Shown here in pieces: positions 1 to 60,367 of a stretch of 64,000 nucleotides of DNA. How positions within the stretch are numbered: position 1 is the stretch's first letter; each line of letters starts with the position of its first letter. The position numbers and the translations under genes were made by a program. Origin of the DNA: Escherichia coli O127:H6 str. E2348/69 (GTDB lineage Bacteria > Pseudomonadota > Gammaproteobacteria > Enterobacterales > Enterobacteriaceae); NCBI RefSeq assembly GCF_000026545.1, contig NC_011601.1. The stretch is one strand, 5' to 3'. The notes under the pieces are model-generated. The model was not told the origin of the DNA and did not search any database. It was given only the letters and a program-made list of their open reading frames with translations.

Positions 1-74
1 TGCGTGTTTTTATTTACTGGAGTCTGCAGGAGCTGGAGTTATAATGCCATTAGCTCTGCTAGAAACTGCAAACT

Positions 75-1049
75 ATGAGGAGTAGCAAAGTGCACTCAGA
101 AGAATTAAAAAATACACTTGGATTAGCTATTCAAATCGGGAAGCTAGCATCTGATCAAAGTGTATTAAAATTCTTTGAGCTTATCGATTTTGATGTTATT
201 CGTGATATACGCGACTTAACTGAGATGGTTAATAGCCACGGGTTTCTAAAAGATAAAATATCTGAGACTGATTTTCTAATAGCGAACGCTGAATTGGAGA
301 ACCACCATGTTAATGGTGTGGAGCTAATACCATATGGGTCTGAATTCTATCCTCTTAGTTTAGCTTTTACTCCTAATCCACCATCAATTCTCTACATAAA
401 AGGGGATAAAAGTATACTCAAAGAATTGCCGGGTGTCGCAATTGTAGGATCCCGTGATACCTCCCCTGCAGGGGAAGAAATAACGAGGCGGATCACTAAT
501 CAGATAGTGTCTGCTGGGTATATTGTTGTAAGTGGGTTAGCAATAGGCACTGATGCGAATGCCCACAAGGCAACGTTACAGGCAAAAGGAAAAACCATTG
601 CTGTCTTGGCGCATGGTCTTGAGGAGGCTAAGCCGAAGCAAAACAGTCGACTTGCTCAAGAGATTCTGGATAAAGGTGGTGCATGGATTTCTGAGTATCC
701 TATGGGTCGGCCGGCCCAGAAACAATCATTTGTACAAAGAAATCGGATACAAGTTGGATTATCTGCAGGTTCAATTTTAATCGAGGCTGCGTTAAATAGC
801 GGAACGATAACTCAAGCTGAGTTTGCAAATAAGGCGAAAAGACCAGTGTTTGCGGTTGTACCTCACCTACCTAATAATCCGCTTAATCTTAATTGTGAGG
901 GAACAGTTGATTTAGTTAAGAGCAACATGGCTAGAGCGCTAAAAACAAAACGGGATTATGATGATGTGATTATGATCATAAATGAGTCCCGGGAGTATTT
1001 GTTAGAGCTAAAATGGCCAGGGAAACAGAGTACATTAGACTTGATTTAA
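75..1049 (+). CDS. DprA/Smf-like (SLOG Rossmann-fold) protein, accessory cargo
   Basis: Translation carries the DprA signature (PPSILYIKGD...VAIVGSRDTSPAGEE...VVSGLAIGTDANAHKATL...RNRIQVGLSAG...PVFAV). Region is visibly AT-rich compared with the adjacent phage genes. Start may be the GTG at 90, which has a GAGGAG Shine-Dalgarno upstream. Confidence 0.6.
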   Translation: MRSSKVHSEELKNTLGLAIQIGKLASDQSVLKFFELIDFDVIRDIRDLTEMVNSHGFLKDKISETDFLIANAELENHHVNGVELIPYGSEFYPLSLAFTPNPPSILYIKGDKSILKELPGVAIVGSRDTSPAGEEITRRITNQIVSAGYIVVSGLAIGTDANAHKATLQAKGKTIAVLAHGLEEAKPKQNSRLAQEILDKGGAWISEYPMGRPAQKQSFVQRNRIQVGLSAGSILIEAALNSGTITQAEFANKAKRPVFAVVPHLPNNPLNLNCEGTVDLVKSNMARALKTKRDYDDVIMIINESREYLLELKWPGKQSTLDLI

Positions 1050-1052
1050 AGC

Positions 1053-1067
1053 GCCTCTTTTAGAGGC
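1053..1067. terminator. short perfect hairpin (GCCTCT-TTT-AGAGGC) between convergent DprA-like gene and Q
   Basis: 6-bp perfect stem with 3-nt loop seen directly; no clear U-tract, so terminator function is uncertain. Confidence 0.3.
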
Positions 1068-1073
1068 ACTTTG

Positions 1074-2102
1074 CTAAATTTGATATCTCTCGAATTTTAT
1101 AATTTCTTCACCGCTCCAATGATTAAATTCTTTCATTCTTTTTTGTAATGGTAATAATTCATTTTTCACAAATACCTTACTAGCTTTTTCTACATCCCCA
1201 AATCCCCCAACATTATTAGGCATTATCCCCATCATTTGTGGCGGCACACGATGCGCTGCCATCATGTCATCCCGACTCACGTTCTTGATGTTAAGAAATT
1301 CATCCTTCGCCGCGACTTCTGACAACGGGATGATCTGAAGCCCGTCCTTTTTGCCGTTAGGCGAGTACATAAACAGGTTGCGGAAGTTGCCAGGGCCTTT
1401 GGCGCTTTTCATCGCATTGCGGAGGTTGTTCACATCCTCCTGGTTCTGCGCGGCATCGGTCATGTACATGATGAAGCCTGCATGACTGCCGTTAATGTAA
1501 TACTTCCGGCGGAACAGCGTGGCGGACTCGTTGAGCAGGGCTGACGGAATGGCAGAAAGATAACCTGGCAGGCCGTAGATCTCCTGGTTGATGTCCGGTT
1601 CCATCAGATGAAAAATGCTGCCTTTCGTGAACTGATACGGCTGGGTTGTCATACCGTATTGCACAAACCAGTAGGTATCCAGGTCTAACCCGCGTCGGGT
1701 GTATTTTGCCAGAGCAGGCTCAAGGGCGATAACTTCACCGAAGCGGTTCGTGCGTTTCTCCAGGTAGGCGTTACCAAATACCAGATAGTCCTGCACAAAA
1801 CGTGAAAAAGCCTGCTGGCTGAGCAGCGGGTGAGGGATGTAGGTACTGGTCAGAATATTGCATTTCACCGCAATCGGTGAGCTGTGATGCACGGCGGCGC
1901 GAAAGGTGCGCGCCAGCCCGTCAAAACTCACTGGCGGCTCATACCATCGATCTGTCTGTACGCATTCCACATAGTCCAGCAGTTCACGGCGGTCCAGAAC
2001 AGGAACGGGATCGCCGAAGCTGAATGCTTCGGCTGAAGTCTGGCTTTTATGCTGGATCTGATTCATCGCCGCTACGCGGTTTTTTTTACTCTTTCCCATC
2101 AA
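1074..2102 (-). CDS. Q: portal protein (P2 gpQ-like)
   Basis: ~342 aa, position and orientation as in P2 (Q and P divergent from O); sequence recognised as P2 portal family. Confidence 0.9.
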   Translation of the reverse strand: MMGKSKKNRVAAMNQIQHKSQTSAEAFSFGDPVPVLDRRELLDYVECVQTDRWYEPPVSFDGLARTFRAAVHHSSPIAVKCNILTSTYIPHPLLSQQAFSRFVQDYLVFGNAYLEKRTNRFGEVIALEPALAKYTRRGLDLDTYWFVQYGMTTQPYQFTKGSIFHLMEPDINQEIYGLPGYLSAIPSALLNESATLFRRKYYINGSHAGFIMYMTDAAQNQEDVNNLRNAMKSAKGPGNFRNLFMYSPNGKKDGLQIIPLSEVAAKDEFLNIKNVSRDDMMAAHRVPPQMMGIMPNNVGGFGDVEKASKVFVKNELLPLQKRMKEFNHWSGEEIIKFERYQI

Positions 2103-3865
2103 AAAATCTCCACAATATTACTGGTATTGGCGGACTCGCCCTGCAGTGGTTCGTTAAACAGTGCGTGCATTGTTGCCCAGGCCAGATCGGCGTGGCTGGC
2201 TTCTTCGCTGCGGCTGGCTTCATAGGTCGGGCGGTTGCCACTGGCGGTGGTGGCGCGACGGATTGCCATAAATGACTGCGCTATGTCGGTGTGTCCGGCG
2301 TCAAACTCCAGACGGCGGTGGCTGATAATGTCGTAGGCCTTGAGTACCAGAGCGTTTTTAACGTTGGGGTTGTAGACAAACTCCCGGACGGCAGGAAAGA
2401 ACGCTTTCACGTTCTCATAAACCCCGTGACCGACGCCTGTCGAGTCGATGCCGATATAGGTCACGTTGTACTGCTCGGTCAGTTTTTTGATTGCATCAGC
2501 CTGGGCGCGGAAGTCCATCCCGCGCCACTGGTGACGCTCAAGAATGCGAAACTTACCGCCTGGCACGGCTGGCGGTGCCACCACCACGCATCCGGCGCTG
2601 TCGCCGTTCTGCGTACCTTTTGCCGGGTCATAACCGATCCACACCTCGCGCCAGCCAAACGGGCGCAGGGCCAGTGCATGAAAGTCGGTCCAGACTTCCC
2701 AACTGTCCACCATGCACGCCTGCAGTTCGCTGAGCGGGAACACGGACGCGAGATCGTCCACGAACTCGCACATCAGCAGGTTCTGGTATTCGTCCGGGCT
2801 GTACTCCATGCGTAGCTGGTCGAGGTCGAACAGGTTACAGCCGCCGCGCACCGCATCTTCCACGGTGACTATCTGGCGGTATTGCCCGTCTGCGCACAGC
2901 AGGCCGGGGGCCAGATTGTTGTGGGACAGGTCGATGTCCACCTTATCGGCTTTGTTGCGCCCACGGTTAAACAGCGCACCGGACCAGAACGGATAAGCAC
3001 TGTGTGTCAGGCTGGATGGCGTGGAAAAATAGGTTTGTCGCCATTTTTTGTGAATAGCCATACCGGAAGCCACTTTGCGCAGCTCCTGGAATTTCGGTAT
3101 CCAGAAATATTCATCCAGATACAGGTTGCCGTGGTAACTCTGGGCCGTGCGGGCATTGGTGCCGAGGAAGTACAGTGTGGCCCCGTTAGGAAGCACCATC
3201 GGATCGCCTTTCAGCTCCACCTCGACTTCTTTGGCGAAGTCGATGATGTACTGCTTAAAGACGTGGGCCTGAGCCTTGCTGGCGGAAAGGAAAATCTGGT
3301 TACGCCCGGTTAGCAGGGCGTCAATCAGGGCTTCACGGGCAAAATAGAAGGTCGCGCCGATCTGGCGTGACTTCAGCAGGTTGCGGATGCGGTTGGTTTT
3401 TCCGGCTTCCCACCAGTGGCGCTGGTAGTTGAACATGGAGGAATGGAAGATTTCTTCCAGCTTCTCAATCTGTTCATCGGTGAAAACGTTCTTTTCCGGC
3501 TGACGGCGCGGGCCTTTGTTGCGGTTGGCGACGTTAGGGTTTAAGTCGGCTTCGTTGCCGCCATTGTTAAACTTGCCGATCCGCGCATGGCGCTCCGACT
3601 GGCGCGCCAGCAGGTCAATCTCTTTGAAATCTTTCCCTTCTTTGTGCTCCTTCATAATGAGCTGACAGTAGCGTGCGGCGGTGGTGAGCTGCATCTGATC
3701 CAGCGGCCCATAGTCACCCCACTTGTCGCGTTTTTTCCAGCTGTGAACGGTTGCAACTTTCTCGCCCAGCATTTCAGCAATGCGGGCGACGCGGTATCCC
3801 TGAAAGTACAGCAGCATGGCCTGCCGACGGGGATCGAGATCTGCGGGTGTCAGTGTGGTGTTCAT
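2099..3865 (-). CDS. P: terminase large (ATPase) subunit (P2 gpP-like)
   Basis: 588 aa, overlaps Q by 4 nt, classic P2 Q-P operon arrangement. Confidence 0.9.
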   Translation of the reverse strand: MNTTLTPADLDPRRQAMLLYFQGYRVARIAEMLGEKVATVHSWKKRDKWGDYGPLDQMQLTTAARYCQLIMKEHKEGKDFKEIDLLARQSERHARIGKFNNGGNEADLNPNVANRNKGPRRQPEKNVFTDEQIEKLEEIFHSSMFNYQRHWWEAGKTNRIRNLLKSRQIGATFYFAREALIDALLTGRNQIFLSASKAQAHVFKQYIIDFAKEVEVELKGDPMVLPNGATLYFLGTNARTAQSYHGNLYLDEYFWIPKFQELRKVASGMAIHKKWRQTYFSTPSSLTHSAYPFWSGALFNRGRNKADKVDIDLSHNNLAPGLLCADGQYRQIVTVEDAVRGGCNLFDLDQLRMEYSPDEYQNLLMCEFVDDLASVFPLSELQACMVDSWEVWTDFHALALRPFGWREVWIGYDPAKGTQNGDSAGCVVVAPPAVPGGKFRILERHQWRGMDFRAQADAIKKLTEQYNVTYIGIDSTGVGHGVYENVKAFFPAVREFVYNPNVKNALVLKAYDIISHRRLEFDAGHTDIAQSFMAIRRATTASGNRPTYEASRSEEASHADLAWATMHALFNEPLQGESANTSNIVEIF

Positions 3866-3911
3866 GGCACAAACCTACAGCCTTGAATGAAGGCTTTCCC
3901 CGCCTGCGGTT

Positions 3912-3929
3912 TGTGTGGTTGTCGGTACA
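3912..3929. promoter_or_regulatory. TGT-N12-ACA dyad, candidate Ogr-dependent late promoter element for the O operon
   Basis: TGTGTGGTTGTCGGTACA lies ~80-95 bp upstream of the O start codon; P2 late promoters carry a TGT-N12-ACA element near -55. The pattern also occurs by chance, so the call rests on placement. Confidence 0.4.
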
Positions 3930-4007
3930 AATACCGCGCATTGTTTCACTGCCTCCATCACCGCAACCATAAGGCTCCAGTAAGTTTTTTCTAACGGAGC
4001 ACGGCTC

Positions 4008-4841
4008 ATGACAGTGAAAGCAAAGCGTTTTCGCATCGGGGTGGAAGGTGCCACCACCGATGGACGCGAAATCCAGCGTGAATGGCTGGAACAGATGGCA
4101 GCCAGCTACAACCCGGCGGTGTATACCGCGCTGATTAACCTTGAGCACATCAAGTCTTATCTGCCGGACAGCACCTTTAACCGCTACGGCAAGGTGACGG
4201 CGCTGTTTGCTGAAGAAATCACGGAAGGTCCGCTGGCAGGCAAGATGGCGCTGTATGCCGACGTTGAGCCAACGGAGTCCCTGGTGGAGCTGGTGAAAAA
4301 AGGCCAGAAATTATTCACCTCTATGGAAGTCAGCCCGAAGTTCGCTGATACGGGCAAAGCCTACCTGGTCGGCCTGGCTGCCACTGATGACCCTGCCAGT
4401 CTGGGCACTGAAATGCTGACATTCAGCGCCAGTGCAGCCCATAACCCGCTGGCAAACCGCAAGCAGAATCCTGCCAATCTCTTTACCGCTGCAGAGGAAA
4501 CGGTGATCGAACTGGAAGAAATCCAGGAGGACAAACCGTCCCTGTTTGCCCGTGTCACGGCGCTGTTCACCAAAAAAGAGCAGTCCGATGACGCCCGGTT
4601 CTCTGATGTGCATAAGGCCGTGGAACTGGTCGCCACTGAGCAGCAGAACCTGAGTGCGCGCACCGAAAAATCCCTGTCTGAGCAGGAAGAACGCCTGTCT
4701 GAGCTGGAGACTGCCCTGCAGGCACAGCTGACCGCCTTTAACGAACTGGTGGACAAGCTGAGCCATGAAGACAGCCGCCAGGACTACCGCCAGCGTGCAA
4801 CAGGCGGTAACGCCCCCGCTGACACTCTGACCAATTGCTGA
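4008..4841 (+). CDS. O: capsid scaffolding protein (P2 gpO-like)
   Basis: 277 aa, N-terminus MTVKAKRFRIGVEG resembles P2 gpO; synteny. Confidence 0.9.
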   Translation: MTVKAKRFRIGVEGATTDGREIQREWLEQMAASYNPAVYTALINLEHIKSYLPDSTFNRYGKVTALFAEEITEGPLAGKMALYADVEPTESLVELVKKGQKLFTSMEVSPKFADTGKAYLVGLAATDDPASLGTEMLTFSASAAHNPLANRKQNPANLFTAAEETVIELEEIQEDKPSLFARVTALFTKKEQSDDARFSDVHKAVELVATEQQNLSARTEKSLSEQEERLSELETALQAQLTAFNELVDKLSHEDSRQDYRQRATGGNAPADTLTNC

Positions 4842-4857
4842 TGGAGCACAAAACCTG

Positions 4858-5916
4858 ATGAAGAAGAATACCCGCTTTGCTTTTAACGCTTACCTGCAGC
4901 AGCTGGCGCGTCTGAACGGTGTGGCAGTTGAAGAACTGTCCAGCAAGTTCACCGTGGAGCCGTCCGTGCAGCAGACGCTGGAAGACCAGATCCAGCAATC
5001 CGCCGCATTCCTGACGCTGATTAACGTCACGCCAGTGACTGAGCAGTCTGGTCAGTTGCTGGGGCTGGGTGTTGGCAGCACCATTGCCGGAACCACTGAT
5101 ACCACCGCAAAAGAGCGTGAGCCTGTCGATCCGACGCTGATGGTCGATGTGGAATACAAATGCGAGCAGACCAACTTTGACACGGTGCTGACCTACGCGA
5201 AGCTGGACCTGTGGGCGAAGTTTCAGGATTTCCAGGTGCGTATCCGTGACGCCATCGTGAAACGTCAGGCACTGGACCGCATCATGATCGGCTTTAACGG
5301 CGTGAAGCGTGCGAAAACCTCCAACCGTAGTGAAAACCCGCTGCTGCAGGATGTGAACAAAGGCTGGCTGCAGAAAATCCGTGAGGATTCACCGGATCAC
5401 GTCATGGGCAGCACCACCACGGGCGGCGAAACCACACCGGGTGCGGTGAAAGTCGGGAAAGGTGGCGAATATGCCAACCTGGACGCTGTGGTGATGGATG
5501 CGGTCAATGAGCTTATCGACGTGGTCTACCAGGACGATGACGATCTGGTGGTGATTTGCGGTCGTGAACTGCTGTCTGACAAGTATTTCCCGCTGGTCAA
5601 CAAAGAGCAGGAAAACAGTGAAAAACTGGCTGCCGATATGATTATCAGTCAGAAACGCATGGGCGGTCTGCAGGCCGTGCGTGCGCCGTTCTTCCCGCCG
5701 AATGCGCTGCTGATCACCCGTCTGGATAACCTGTCCATCTACTGGCAGGAAGACACCCGCCGCCGTTCAGTTATCGACAACCCGAAACGTGACCGGATTG
5801 AAAATTTTGAATCCGTTAACGAAGCCTACGTGGTTGAGGACTACCGCTGCGCCGCACTGGTGGAAAACATCCAGATTGGCGACTTCAGCGCCGCCGCAGC
5901 AGAAACCGGAGCGTAA
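4858..5916 (+). CDS. N: major capsid protein (P2 gpN-like)
   Basis: 352 aa, strong resemblance to P2 gpN (RFAFNAYL...NGVKRA...VGKGG). Confidence 0.9.
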   Translation: MKKNTRFAFNAYLQQLARLNGVAVEELSSKFTVEPSVQQTLEDQIQQSAAFLTLINVTPVTEQSGQLLGLGVGSTIAGTTDTTAKEREPVDPTLMVDVEYKCEQTNFDTVLTYAKLDLWAKFQDFQVRIRDAIVKRQALDRIMIGFNGVKRAKTSNRSENPLLQDVNKGWLQKIREDSPDHVMGSTTTGGETTPGAVKVGKGGEYANLDAVVMDAVNELIDVVYQDDDDLVVICGRELLSDKYFPLVNKEQENSEKLAADMIISQKRMGGLQAVRAPFFPPNALLITRLDNLSIYWQEDTRRRSVIDNPKRDRIENFESVNEAYVVEDYRCAALVENIQIGDFSAAAAETGA

Positions 5917-5919
5917 TTC

Positions 5920-6570
5920 ATGAGCCTGAGTCCCGCACGGCAGCATCGCCTGCGCGTTCAGGCTGAACAGGCCGCTCGTGAGGGCGGCAGTGTTCGCCAC
6001 GCGTCGGGCTATGACCTGATGCTGCTGCAACTGGCGGAAGACCGCCGCCGTCTCAAGGGCGTTCAGTCCACGGTGAAAAAAGCGGAAATAAAGGTGGAGC
6101 TGCTGCCGAAATATGCCGCCTGGGCGGAGGGCGTCCTGGCTGCCGGAGGCGCTCAACAGGATGACGTGCTGATGTACGTGATGCTGTGGCGCATTGATGC
6201 CGGAGATTATGCCGGGGCGCTGGAGATCGGGCGTCATGCCCTGCGTCATGGCTGGGTGATGCCGCTGGGTAACCGCAACGTGCAGACCGTGCTGGCAGAG
6301 GAAATGGCAGATGCAGCGCAGAGCGCAATGCTTGCCGCCACCGGCTTTGATGCCGATCTGTTGCTGCAGACGCTGGAGCTGACAGACGGTCTGGATATGC
6401 CGGACCAGTCACGGACGCGTCTGCATAAAGCGATTGGCGCTGTCCTGAGTGAAAGCAATCCGGCTTCCGCCCTTAATCATCTCAACCATGCGTTACAGCT
6501 CGATCCCCGCTGTGGCGTGAAAAAAGACAAACAGCAGCTGGAGCGCAGACTGCGCAATGACAGCCGCTGA
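5920..6570 (+). CDS. M: terminase small subunit / endonuclease (P2 gpM-like)
   Basis: 216 aa, position after N; P2 gpM family. Confidence 0.85.
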   Translation: MSLSPARQHRLRVQAEQAAREGGSVRHASGYDLMLLQLAEDRRRLKGVQSTVKKAEIKVELLPKYAAWAEGVLAAGGAQQDDVLMYVMLWRIDAGDYAGALEIGRHALRHGWVMPLGNRNVQTVLAEEMADAAQSAMLAATGFDADLLLQTLELTDGLDMPDQSRTRLHKAIGAVLSESNPASALNHLNHALQLDPRCGVKKDKQQLERRLRNDSR

Positions 6571-6665
6571 CAGAACGTGCCCCCGCGCACGGGCGGCACG
6601 GGGTGGCGAAAGGCACTGCCACATCAAAACCCCGTCCACCGCCCTTTATTTCAGGAGAAAGCAGC

Positions 6666-7130
6666 ATGAAGTTTGTTGCGCCAGAACAGGCACCGGAACA
6701 GGCGGAAATCATCAGAAATACGCCGTTCTGGCCTGATGTGGACCTGTCGGAGTTTCGCAGTGTCATGCGCACTGACGGCACGGTGACGCAGCCGCGTTTA
6801 AAGCAGGTTGCGCTGTCGGCAATTTCGGAGGTCAACGCAGAGCTGTATGAGTTTCGCAGACGCCAGCAGATGCTGGGGTATGCCTCGCTGGCAGAAGTCC
6901 TGGCGGAACAACTGGACGGCAAAAGCGAGCGCATTCAGCACTATTTCAACGCGGTTTACTGCTGGGCACGCGCCATGCTCAACGAACGTTACCAGGACTA
7001 TGACGCCACGGCATCCGGTGCGAAGCGAGGCGAGGAACTGGCGGAAGCCAGCGGTGATTTATGGCGTGACGCCCGCTGGGCCATCAGCCGGGTGCAGGAT
7101 GCGCCGCACTGCACAGTGGAGCTTATCTGA
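6666..7130 (+). CDS. L: head completion/stabilisation protein (P2 gpL-like)
   Basis: ATG at 6666 preceded by AGGAGAAAG; the six-frame ORF begins earlier at 6603, but the homologous part starts MKFVAPEQ. Confidence 0.85.
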   Translation: MKFVAPEQAPEQAEIIRNTPFWPDVDLSEFRSVMRTDGTVTQPRLKQVALSAISEVNAELYEFRRRQQMLGYASLAEVLAEQLDGKSERIQHYFNAVYCWARAMLNERYQDYDATASGAKRGEELAEASGDLWRDARWAISRVQDAPHCTVELI

Positions 7131-7333
7131 TGAAAGTGCGTGCGCATCAGTATGACACGGTGGACGCACTTTGCTGGCGTCATTACGGGCGCACGCAGGG
7201 TGTCACGGAGCAGGTACTGAAGGCAAATCCGGGGCTTGCCGAATACGGCCCCTTTTTACCTCACGGGCTGCAGGTGGAGCTGCCGGACATTCCGACAACC
7301 ACCACCGTGCAGACCGTCCAGCTATGGGACTGA
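7130..7333 (+). CDS. X: tail protein X (P2 gpX-like)
   Basis: 67 aa, ATGA start/stop overlap with L; typical P2 gpX size and position. Confidence 0.8.
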   Translation: MKVRAHQYDTVDALCWRHYGRTQGVTEQVLKANPGLAEYGPFLPHGLQVELPDIPTTTTVQTVQLWD

Positions 7334-7336
7334 ATT

Positions 7337-7552
7337 ATGACGCTTGAGCGAATCAGCGCCTTTATCACGTATTGCATCGCCGTCGTGCTGGCCTGGCTGG
7401 GCGATTTGTCCATCAAGGATGCCTCAACGCTGGGCGGCCTGATGATCGGTGTGCTGATGCTGGCTATCAACTGGTACTACAAACACAAAGCCTACCAGCT
7501 TCTGCGCGACGGGCAGATCTCGCGGGAGGACTATGAATCCATCAATCGTTAA
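7337..7552 (+). CDS. small membrane protein, probable holin (pinholin-like)
   Basis: 71 aa with two hydrophobic segments, located immediately upstream of an endolysin that has an N-terminal signal-anchor-release segment. Confidence 0.6.
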   Translation: MTLERISAFITYCIAVVLAWLGDLSIKDASTLGGLMIGVLMLAINWYYKHKAYQLLRDGQISREDYESINR

Positions 7553-8045
7553 ACGCTGCCTTGTCGGGGCCGTGCTGGCTATTGCTGCCACGCTGCCGGG
7601 TTTTCAGCAGCTTCACACCTCCGTGGAGGGGCTGAAACTGATTGCCGATTACGAAGGCTGTCGTCTGCAGCCGTATCAGTGCAGCGCGGGTGTCTGGACC
7701 GACGGCATTGGTAATACGTCGGGCGTCATTCCGGGCAAAACCATTACGGAACGACAGGCAGCGGAAGGGCTGATCTCTAACGTGCTGCGTGTGGAGCGGG
7801 CACTGGAAAGGTGTGTGAAGCAACAGCCGCCGCAGAAGGTGTATGACGCTACGGTGTCGTTTGCCTTCAACGTGGGGACGGGCAATGCCTGCAGTTCCAC
7901 GCTGGTGAAATTGCTCAATCAGCGGCGCTGGGCGGATGCGTGCCGACAGTTGCCGCGCTGGGTTTATGTAAAAGGTGTTTTTAATCAGGGGCTGGATAAC
8001 CGCCGTGCGCGGGAGATGGCCTGGTGCTTACAGGGAGCAAACTGA
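7533..8045 (+). CDS. K: SAR endolysin (T4-lysozyme-like muramidase, GH24)
   Basis: Hydrophobic N-terminus (VGAVLAIAATLPG) followed by lysozyme motifs (EG..L.AY.D..GVWTDGIGNT). Confidence 0.8.
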   Translation: MNPSIVKRCLVGAVLAIAATLPGFQQLHTSVEGLKLIADYEGCRLQPYQCSAGVWTDGIGNTSGVIPGKTITERQAAEGLISNVLRVERALERCVKQQPPQKVYDATVSFAFNVGTGNACSSTLVKLLNQRRWADACRQLPRWVYVKGVFNQGLDNRRAREMAWCLQGAN

Positions 8046-8046
8046 A

Positions 8047-8424
8047 ATGAAAAAGAAATTAATCAGCGGGCTGTTTCTGATGTTATGGATGGCGCTGTTA
8101 ATCGCAGCAATGGTGTATCCGCATGGGATTTTTCCGGTACTGGCAGCGTCCGGCGTTTGGGTAGCCTGTTTGCTGACATGGGCGGTAATTCCGGTAGCAC
8201 TGGCTGCGTTAATTAAGAATGGCCCGCTCTGGCAGGAGTTGAGGGCATCTTTGCTGAAGAAAATTACCCGAAAAGAAAACGTATTTATCAGCTGGGTGAT
8301 GCGATTGCTGATTGTCGTCAGTCTCGCCTGGACGGGGTGGGCTATTACCCTGGTCTTTTATCTGCTGACCGTTATTGCCTTCTGGATCACCCGTAATCAG
8401 ATGGCGCAACAGGTAGCAGCATGA
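8047..8424 (+). CDS. lysA: LysA-like lysis-timing membrane protein
   Basis: ~125 aa multi-pass membrane protein from ATG 8047, positioned between endolysin and lysB as in P2. Confidence 0.6.
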   Translation: MKKKLISGLFLMLWMALLIAAMVYPHGIFPVLAASGVWVACLLTWAVIPVALAALIKNGPLWQELRASLLKKITRKENVFISWVMRLLIVVSLAWTGWAITLVFYLLTVIAFWITRNQMAQQVAA

Positions 8425-8849
8425 ACCGGTTGCTGCTGGTTGTGCTGACGTTATTACTGGCGGCGCTGGGCTGGCAGACGTGGCGGCTGGCTGATGCCAG
8501 CCGGACCATCACCACGCAGGCAGACGAGCTGCAGAGCAAAAGCCAGGCACTGGCAAAGAGCAACAGCCAGCTTATCAGCCTGTCCATTCTGACTGAAACC
8601 AATAACCGGGAGCAGGCGCGGCTCTATGCCGAAGCAGAACAGACCAGCGCGCTGCTGAGACAACGACAACACCGGATCGAGGAACTGAAACGTGAGAACG
8701 AGGATTTACGCCGCTGGGCTGATACTCCTTTGCCTGCTGACATTATCCGGCTGCGGGAACGTCCGGCACTTACCGGAGGTGCAGCTTACCGTCAGTGGTT
8801 GTCCGCGAGTGACGCCGTGTCGGCTGGAGCAGGCAGCGCCGCGCACTAA
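8421..8849 (+). CDS. lysB: LysB (i-spanin, Rz-like)
   Basis: 142 aa, N-terminal transmembrane segment then coiled-coil-rich periplasmic region; P2 lysB position. Confidence 0.75.
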   Translation: MNRLLLVVLTLLLAALGWQTWRLADASRTITTQADELQSKSQALAKSNSQLISLSILTETNNREQARLYAEAEQTSALLRQRQHRIEELKRENEDLRRWADTPLPADIIRLRERPALTGGAAYRQWLSASDAVSAGAGSAAH

Positions 8850-8979
8850 CGGTGATCTGAACGCAATGCTGGATGAAACGGAGGCCGCCTGGGCGGTCTG
8901 TGCAGACAAAGTGGACATGATTATTGCGTGTCAGGAGCGAAACAGTGAACAAACCACAATCCCTGCGCCACGCCCTTAA
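8692..8979 (+). CDS. lysC: LysC (o-spanin, Rz1-like lipoprotein) overlapping lysB in another frame
   Basis: 95 aa, lipobox LTLSGC, starts inside lysB out of frame, as in P2. Confidence 0.7.
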   Translation: MRTRIYAAGLILLCLLTLSGCGNVRHLPEVQLTVSGCPRVTPCRLEQAAPRTNGDLNAMLDETEAAWAVCADKVDMIIACQERNSEQTTIPAPRP

Positions 8980-60055: not shown

Positions 60056-60120
60056 ATGCGAAAAAAAACTCGTACTTTCGTACGAGCTTTTCTTTAAAGA
60101 TGGCGGTGAGGGGGGGATTG
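60056..60120. repeat. upstream copy of the ~63-bp direct repeat: terminator hairpin plus tRNA-Ser 3'-end-like sequence
   Basis: Near-identical to 60234-60298, which is the 3' end and terminator of serW; the two copies are separated by ~113 bp. Confidence 0.4.
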
Positions 60121-60279
60121 ACTCGCTTCGCTCGCCCTGCGGGCAGCCCACTCACTGCGTTCGTGGTCTGTCCAACTGGCTGCGCCAGTTGTCGAACCCC
60201 GGTCGGGGCTTCTCATCCCCCCTGGAGTGCAATATGCGAAAAAAAAGCTCGCACTTTCGTACGAGCTTTTCTTTAAATA

Positions 60280-60367
60280 TGGCGGTGAAGGGGGGATTCG
60301 AACCCCCGATACGTTGCCGTATACACACTTTCCAGGCGTGCTCCTTCAGCCACTCGGACACCTCACC
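60280..60367 (-). tRNA. serW: tRNA-Ser (anticodon GGA)
   Basis: 88-nt minus-strand sequence GGTGAGGTGTCCGAGTGG...GGTTCGAATCCCCCCTTCACCGCCA with long variable arm. Confidence 0.9.

Follow-up and report, generated by a model that had tools for sequence, protein, structure and literature searches.

A candidate ShosTA-type gene pair with a short toxin, carried between cos and the portal gene of a P2/186-like prophage of Escherichia coli E2348/69

A DprA-like gene and its upstream partner

The window analysed here, a stretch of 64,000 nucleotides from E. coli O127:H6 str. E2348/69, opens with the tail of one gene, followed by a complete gene for a DprA-family protein and by the convergent portal gene of a prophage (Table 1). 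In the DprA-like protein, the DNA_processg_A domain (PF02481) spans residues 80-284 (E 1.8e-60), and a Pfam search found no DprA_WH or other C-terminal domain. The predicted structure (pLDDT 85) consists of an N-terminal helical SAM-like domain, a Rossmann core and a single long C-terminal helix, and its nearest PDB structure is ShosA (8zva, E 3.2e-20), aligned over approximately the full length of both proteins. Two PADLOC ShosA profiles also match (PDLC03961, 2.8e-70; PDLC02997, 2.8e-33). The GC content of window 1-1073 is 0.410, as compared with 0.541 in the prophage late region and 0.518 in the host flank, and the gene is found in 22 of 5426 complete E. coli genomes, or 22 of the 1084 related prophage-bearing genomes. 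An earlier note, made from the letters of the window, had described a 324-codon open reading frame with a DprA fold, lacking the C-terminal extension of chromosomal DprA/Smf, set in AT-rich DNA and ending 24 bp from the stop codon of the portal gene Q; each of these points is borne out.

Table 1. Features at the left end of the prophage. Positions are those of the window unless given for L001, the 19.4-kb E2348/69 locus; negative positions lie upstream of the window.
Feature	Position	Strand	Basis or detail
cos	L001 8361-8379 (window -639 to -621; 621-639 bp upstream of position 1)		19-mer GGCGTGGCGGGGATACGAG
Cassette insertion between cos and portal stop codon	L001 8392-10073
shosT-like PRTase gene, 3' end (last 85 nt with stop codon)	1-85	+	gene cut by the window start
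Overlap of PRTase and DprA-like genes, 11 nt	75-85	+	L001 8510-9085 and 9075-10049
shosA-like gene, DprA-family protein, 324 aa (324 codons), ATG start	75-1049	+	ORF list, PADLOC, Pfam
Stem-loop filling the spacer	1047-1073	both	folding
Portal gene, homologous to Q of P2 and W of 186; marks the conserved right-hand end of the cargo slot	1074-2102	-

Several complete E. coli genomes, EPEC E2348/69 among them, match window positions 1-1400 with 100% identity, and the upstream sequence was read from an E2348/69 locus that contains window 1-10400 and whose positions 9001-10400 reproduce window 1-1400 base for base. The gene cut by the window start extends there to L001 8510 (window -490), lies on the same strand as the DprA-like gene, and encodes a 191-aa phosphoribosyltransferase (PRTase) that ends with ...NVLLLDDVKTTGGSLSAC...; an in-frame stop 3 nt 5' of its ATG bounds the reading frame. 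The overlap of the two genes suggests an operon organisation, possibly with translational coupling, and the same overlap is annotated in strain ECCHD184 and in orf14/orf15 of phage SopEΦ. At the level of sequence the PRTase is divergent. It matches the PADLOC ShosT profile PDLC03962 (3.7e-14), the general ShosT profile of 237 positions is covered at positions 62-211 only, and the 427-position ShosT model PDLC03012 gave no match in the PADLOC profile search; the Pfam match (Pribosyltran, 0.0018) is weak, as are those to adenine PRTase models. The AlphaFold model (pLDDT 91) is nevertheless that of a complete, confidently folded PRTase domain, predicted to be nearest to ShosT (8zvc/8zvd/8zvb) and ComFC and about equally close to both. 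When the short PRTase was searched against PDB sequences, ShosT was not retrieved; structure comparison alone recovered it. Given the ShosT and ShosA calls, the earlier guess at a DprA plus PRTase defence system was right, as was its placing of the partner upstream, outside the window.

In the RefSeq annotation of E2348/69, the approximately 1.1 kb upstream of the DprA-like gene, where the PRTase reading frame lies, is blank, and most other identical records show DprA and the portal protein only under the match. ECCHD184 lists the same reading frame under WP_001316964.1 (hypothetical protein), so the blank in the E2348/69 record is an annotation gap. A consensus promoter scan upstream of the PRTase gene gave nothing convincing (3 sites, with 5.5 expected), an Rfam search revealed no RNA family in or near the cassette, and the repeats around it are chance-like.

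The cargo slot between cos and the portal gene

Neither the P2 nor the 186 cos 19-mer occurs with up to 3 mismatches in the 19.4-kb locus, in agreement with the earlier failure to see a P2 cohesive end beside Q. The search for cos upstream of the window that the note had recommended was rewarded with a variant site, which we placed by aligning the flanks with the right ends of P2 and 186, with SopEΦ and with the APEC O1 junction. The 19-mer carries 4-5 mismatches, and 15 of its 19 positions agree with the 186 end. Its left neighbour is ...CATAAAGCGGGCA, at the very point at which the 186 record stops, and CGCGCGC comes after it, a feature shared with P2 and 186. A block of ~150 bp (L001 8235-8391) is common to many P2/186-type phages. 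Homology to P2 and 186 stops ~12 nt past cos; other E. coli P2-like prophages become homologous again 2-7 nt past the portal stop codon (window 1076-1081). The interval from cos to the portal stop measures 1.7 kb here, as opposed to ~170-190 bp with a terminator only in P2 and 186.

The right-hand boundary is compact. The DprA-like and portal reading frames converge with 24 bp between their stop codons (1050-1073), the portal frame ending at 1074, and the hairpin that fills this spacer has a folding energy of -12.9 kcal/mol on the plus strand and -15.5 kcal/mol on the minus strand (z -3.2 and -4.7). P2 and 186 carry annotated terminators at the equivalent position, and the stem-loop is probably a bidirectional terminator that replaces their tQ and tW. 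The last 300 nt of the portal gene (window 1074-1373) have a GC content of 0.40, versus 0.50 for the whole gene; from this AT-rich end, a mosaic boundary may reach into the 3' end of Q.

In E2348/69, gene A is followed by a small hypothetical gene, by a DinI/Tum-like gene and by an oppositely oriented DUF8087 gene; then come cos, the PRTase and DprA-like genes, Q and terminase. The gpA-gpQ interval is a hotspot as defined by Rousset et al. (PMC9122126), and both flanks of cos fall inside it. The earlier note had assigned the DprA-like gene to hotspot cargo at the tin/old position. The assignment to the hotspot stands; the precise position does not, as, seen from cos, the cassette lies towards Q rather than towards old/tin. 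Like the cassette, old and tin of P2 are accessory, AT-rich and variable cargo next to cos, but in the packaged genome they are found at the right end, upstream of cos, and the cassette at the left end, from cos to Q. Cargo on the old/tin side differs from one prophage to another: a DUF8087 gene in E2348/69 (L001 7454-8224), a large protein with a P-loop NTPase fold in ECCHD184 (L011 1-1575) and the candidate defence pair PDC-M11A/B in SopEΦ (L004 2037-3501). Homology between E2348/69 and ECCHD184 stops ~135 bp upstream of cos. The old/tin side thus varies independently of the cassette, and the two sides of cos appear to act as distinct cargo slots. The cassette is cos-proximal cargo of the P2-family gpA-gpQ hotspot, variable among related prophages.

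The prophage that carries the cassette has early genes of the 186 type (CI, CII, Fil, DinI/Tum-like). At the far end of its early region, L001 1-1671 holds a gene for a KAP-family P-loop NTPase and two adjacent genes annotated as phage repressor protein CI (307 aa and 189 aa); the NTPase may be further accessory or defence cargo. In the late region, a baseplate/tail-fibre block comprising V, W, J, I and a 353-aa tail-fibre gene (window 9369-15137) lies on the minus strand, in the orientation opposite to that of the remaining late genes. A gpS-like virion morphogenesis gene is truncated at one junction of this block, and the other junction bears a Hin/Cin-type recombinase gene (14526-15137) and a hypothetical gene of ~390 aa (13272-14453), an arrangement that suggests a large, invertase-associated inversion and a prophage defective for tail assembly. 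The tape-measure reading frame (window 17461-20538, 1025 aa) is intact here and annotated as frameshifted in NZ_CP059840.2. The RybB sRNA gene (window 22501-22579, minus strand, 105 bits) lies between ybjL and the ogr end of the prophage, immediately next to the latter, from which we place the integration site next to rybB. Further into the host flank, window 60101-60367 (minus strand) contains an 85-nt tRNA gene and an adjoining RtT RNA element, both unrelated to the cassette.

Conservation of the pair and its relation to ShosTA

The short PRTase is uniform in length. Homologues in Citrobacter, Enterobacter, Dickeya, Yersinia, Hafnia, Kluyvera, Pectobacterium and Shewanella are all 189-193 aa long, and strongly kept motifs of the family include CG-YHPY, MMDFK, VPSH, SAHxEGGDRS-GH and LLLDDVKTTGGS. 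Between E2348/69 and ECCHD184, the DprA-like gene shows 14 synonymous and 0 nonsynonymous differences, and the PRTase gene shows 3 synonymous differences and a single conservative I-to-V change. With 17 synonymous differences and 1 nonsynonymous difference between the two strains, the short pair is under purifying selection.

The pair also recurs, with the same sizes and order, in other temperate phages. It adjoins the portal gene in the Salmonella phage SopEΦ (orf14/orf15), occupies the same position as in E2348/69 in P2-like prophages of Pectobacterium, and is situated between mor and the lysis genes in a Mu-like prophage of Shewanella algae. As in E2348/69, these pairs encode proteins of 190-193 aa and 319-325 aa in the same order, with overlap or adjacency of the genes, and in SopEΦ and Pectobacterium they lie between cos and the portal gene. 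They differ from the E2348/69 pair in host genus and phage backbone. The DprA-like protein of E2348/69 is 60% identical to that of SopEΦ and 53% identical to that of Shewanella, and identity between the PRTases is 40-51%. Judged by their sequences, the three sets of pairs are true orthologues of the E2348/69 cassette; their genes are annotated as 'unknown', with no described function.

More distant relatives were sought in reference genomes, where a scan turned up full-length short PRTases at 26-37% identity in at least 30 distant loci. Among the matches listed, the hosts include cyanobacteria, Achromobacter, Morganella, Microbulbifer, Clostridia and archaea of the ANME/Methanosarcinales. A DprA-like gene is present on the same strand in 21 of the 30 distant loci listed, immediately downstream of the PRTase gene in 20 of them. 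The remaining nine have no DprA-like partner at E <= 1e-5; in one (L046) the sequence stops at the PRTase match, and the other partnerless PRTases may pair with something else. We take the combination of a short PRTase and a DprA-like protein to be an old, mobile and constrained module. No DNA homologous to the cassette was found in the plasmid collection. Archaeal full-length relatives of the short PRTase, among the matches listed, come from MAGs of ANME-2/Methanosarcinales, Altiarchaeales and Methanomassiliicoccales; a DprA-like gene often follows immediately downstream.

The closest characterised counterpart is ShosTA of E. coli APEC O1. Rousset et al. validated it (pFR105), and Pu et al. 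and Yang et al. examined it in detail (PMC9122126, PMC11961720, PMC12961424; see also Millman 2022, Pu 2025, Yang 2026 and structures 8ZVA-8ZVD and 9VZO). Both cassettes consist of two genes, for a PRTase toxin and a DprA-like antitoxin, in the cos-proximal gpA-gpQ hotspot of a P2-family prophage, and the DprA-like protein of E2348/69 has the same layout of SAM-like domain, Rossmann domain and C-terminal helix as ShosA, with 36% identity over the 198 aa of the core. At 191 aa, the putative E2348/69 toxin is far shorter than the 424-aa ShosT of APEC O1, lacks its N-terminal pyrophosphatase (HAD-like) domain, and resembles it in sequence only around the PRPP loop (16 of 44 positions identical). 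The gene order is toxin then antitoxin, with the 11-nt overlap, in E2348/69 and antitoxin then toxin in APEC O1, and, with respect to cos, the cassette is located towards the portal gene, that of APEC O1 towards old/tin (order there: portal, cos, shosA, shosT, gene A).

The ShosT acidic pair D331/D332, mutation of which abolishes toxicity, aligns to D154/D155 in LLLDDVKTTGGS of the short PRTase; among 23 members of the PRTase family, D155 is invariant and D154 nearly so. ShosA R139 and R234, essential for ssDNA binding and antitoxin activity (PMC11961720, PMC12961424), correspond to R127 and R222, both invariant in a five-sequence alignment, and K200, the main RecA-contact lysine, is kept as K188. 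ShosA R206, also a RecA-contact residue, and the dimer-interface residues L181/F182 correspond to A194 and Q169/A170, and neither is kept. On this comparison we classify the E2348/69 pair as a short-toxin member of the ShosTA family, distinct from the characterised APEC O1 system. Our literature search found no paper testing the short-toxin form, and N-terminal and internal peptides of the pair had no match in the portions of the Rousset supplementary catalogues that were accessible.

PsyrTA (RqlHI) is built along similar lines, with a DprA-like antitoxin and a toxin bearing a C-terminal PRTase domain, and PADLOC returned weak matches to PsyrA (1e-30) and to PsyrT (positions 577-686, 4.9e-06). 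PsyrT is ~690 residues long and includes a RecQ-like helicase region; its PRTase tail alone aligns to the short PRTase. We rejected membership in PsyrTA on these grounds and because the ShosA and ShosT models score far better.

Proposed function and alternatives

We consider it likely that the gene at 75-1049 encodes the ShosA-type antitoxin of a two-gene toxin-antitoxin or abortive-infection cassette of the ShosTA family, carried as accessory cargo by a P2/186-like prophage. For the long form of ShosT, binding of PRPP by the PRTase is required for toxicity, and the toxin disturbs purine metabolism, leading to DNA damage and filamentation. ShosA does not bind ShosT, and neutralises it indirectly through ssDNA binding and RecA; release of the toxin has been attributed to host shut-off by T7 gp0.7 together with the instability of ShosA, and possibly to phage ssDNA (PMC11961720, PMC12961424). 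Mutation of the pyrophosphatase domain lowers ShosT toxicity only marginally, which makes a PRTase-only toxin credible. The toxicity, neutralisation, anti-phage phenotype, trigger and chemistry that we infer for the short pair would then be as follows. The PRTase would bind PRPP through its conserved DDVKTTG loop and perturb either the metabolism of nucleotides or the integrity of the DNA; ssDNA binding (R127, R222) and engagement of RecA (K188) would let the DprA-like protein keep the cell viable. On infection by another phage, host shut-off or a flood of phage ssDNA would disable the antitoxin, and the freed toxin would kill or arrest the cell before the invader matures, protecting the lysogen population and the resident prophage.

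A more far-reaching version of this proposal is speculative, and we think it rather doubtful. It holds that the short pair is a distinct, ancient module of bacteria and ANME/Methanosarcinales derived from a ComFC-DprA partnership in ssDNA handling; that its proteins interact directly and sense foreign ssDNA, incoming or replicating, unlike the non-interacting, pyrophosphatase-coupled APEC O1 system; and that the cos-to-portal interval is a second P2-family cargo slot apart from old/tin.

A third possibility is that the pair was captured from a competence-type system and serves the phage. A ComFC-like PRTase and a DprA-like protein would bind each other and ssDNA, assisting recombination, protecting replication intermediates or acting in counter-defence; the ComFC-like fold of the short PRTase and reported interactions between ComFC and DprA favour this. 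The ComFC resemblance is nonetheless incomplete: the four-Cys N-terminal zinc finger is missing (the cysteines of the short PRTase are at 10, 111, 112 and 166, with no CxxC pair), the NCBIfam comF model scores 25.5 (E 1e-5) against a cutoff of 233.55, and neither protein reaches its NCBIfam cutoff, comF or dprA, the DprA winged helix at the C-terminus being absent as well. The ComFC and DprA of natural transformation belong to a competence locus, whereas the present pair is AT-rich and phage-borne; it occupies accessory, variable slots in unrelated temperate phages, as defence cargo typically does and core phage functions do not, and its presence in so few of the related prophage-bearing genomes points the same way. 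In addition, every characterised pair of a PRTase and a DprA-like protein (ShosTA, PsyrTA/RqlHI) is a toxin-antitoxin system (PMC9122126; 10.1101/2022.05.11.491447). We therefore judge a phage-serving role of this kind to be improbable.

Still less probable, and largely refuted, is the view that the locus is a decaying remnant in which an orphan DprA-like gene adjoins a non-functional fragment of a long ShosT, and was left unannotated for that reason. The blank stretch in the E2348/69 RefSeq record, a PRTase reading frame less than half as long as the characterised ShosT, and a prophage that itself looks rearranged would all fit decay. A fragment would not be expected to recur at a uniform 189-193 aa across genera, to be modelled with confidence as a complete domain, or to differ between strains almost exclusively at synonymous sites; moreover, the reading frame is annotated in ECCHD184, and the pairing is kept into archaea. 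Finally, the chance that the gene is simply the dprA/smf orthologue of the host, at or close to its usual chromosomal place, is negligible: it is named 'DNA-processing protein DprA' by PGAP and falls just below the TIGR00732 cutoff (186.4 versus 191.15), but against the E. coli Smf equivalog PRK10736, of which it covers only positions 71-271 of 374, its score is 168.6 (cutoff 495), and it lacks the C-terminal winged helix, sits in a prophage between phage cos and portal gene, and has nothing of the near-universal presence of a canonical DprA/Smf. It is thus a DprA-family protein but not host Smf. Two findings that would have spoken against the earlier note, ordinary chromosomal genes upstream and identity with host smf, are replaced by prophage DNA with a partner gene and by a protein of another kind.

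In returning to the ShosTA-type toxin-antitoxin reading, we note that a known family is found here at a known hotspot, and that the short toxin, the reversed gene order and the location to the left of cos set this subgroup apart. With it, the prophage of a reference pathogen, EPEC E2348/69, gains a putative anti-phage toxin-antitoxin system. Because the toxin gene is missing from the E2348/69 RefSeq annotation, a defence finder working from annotated proteins would meet no more than an orphan 'DprA'. Being short and PRTase-only, the toxin provides a natural experiment on the role of the PRTase and on the importance of the pyrophosphatase domain, questions left open by the two structural papers, and its likeness to ComFC hints at the origin of these systems. 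If the left-of-cos placement proves to be general, surveys of P2-family cargo should count the two flanks of cos as separate slots.
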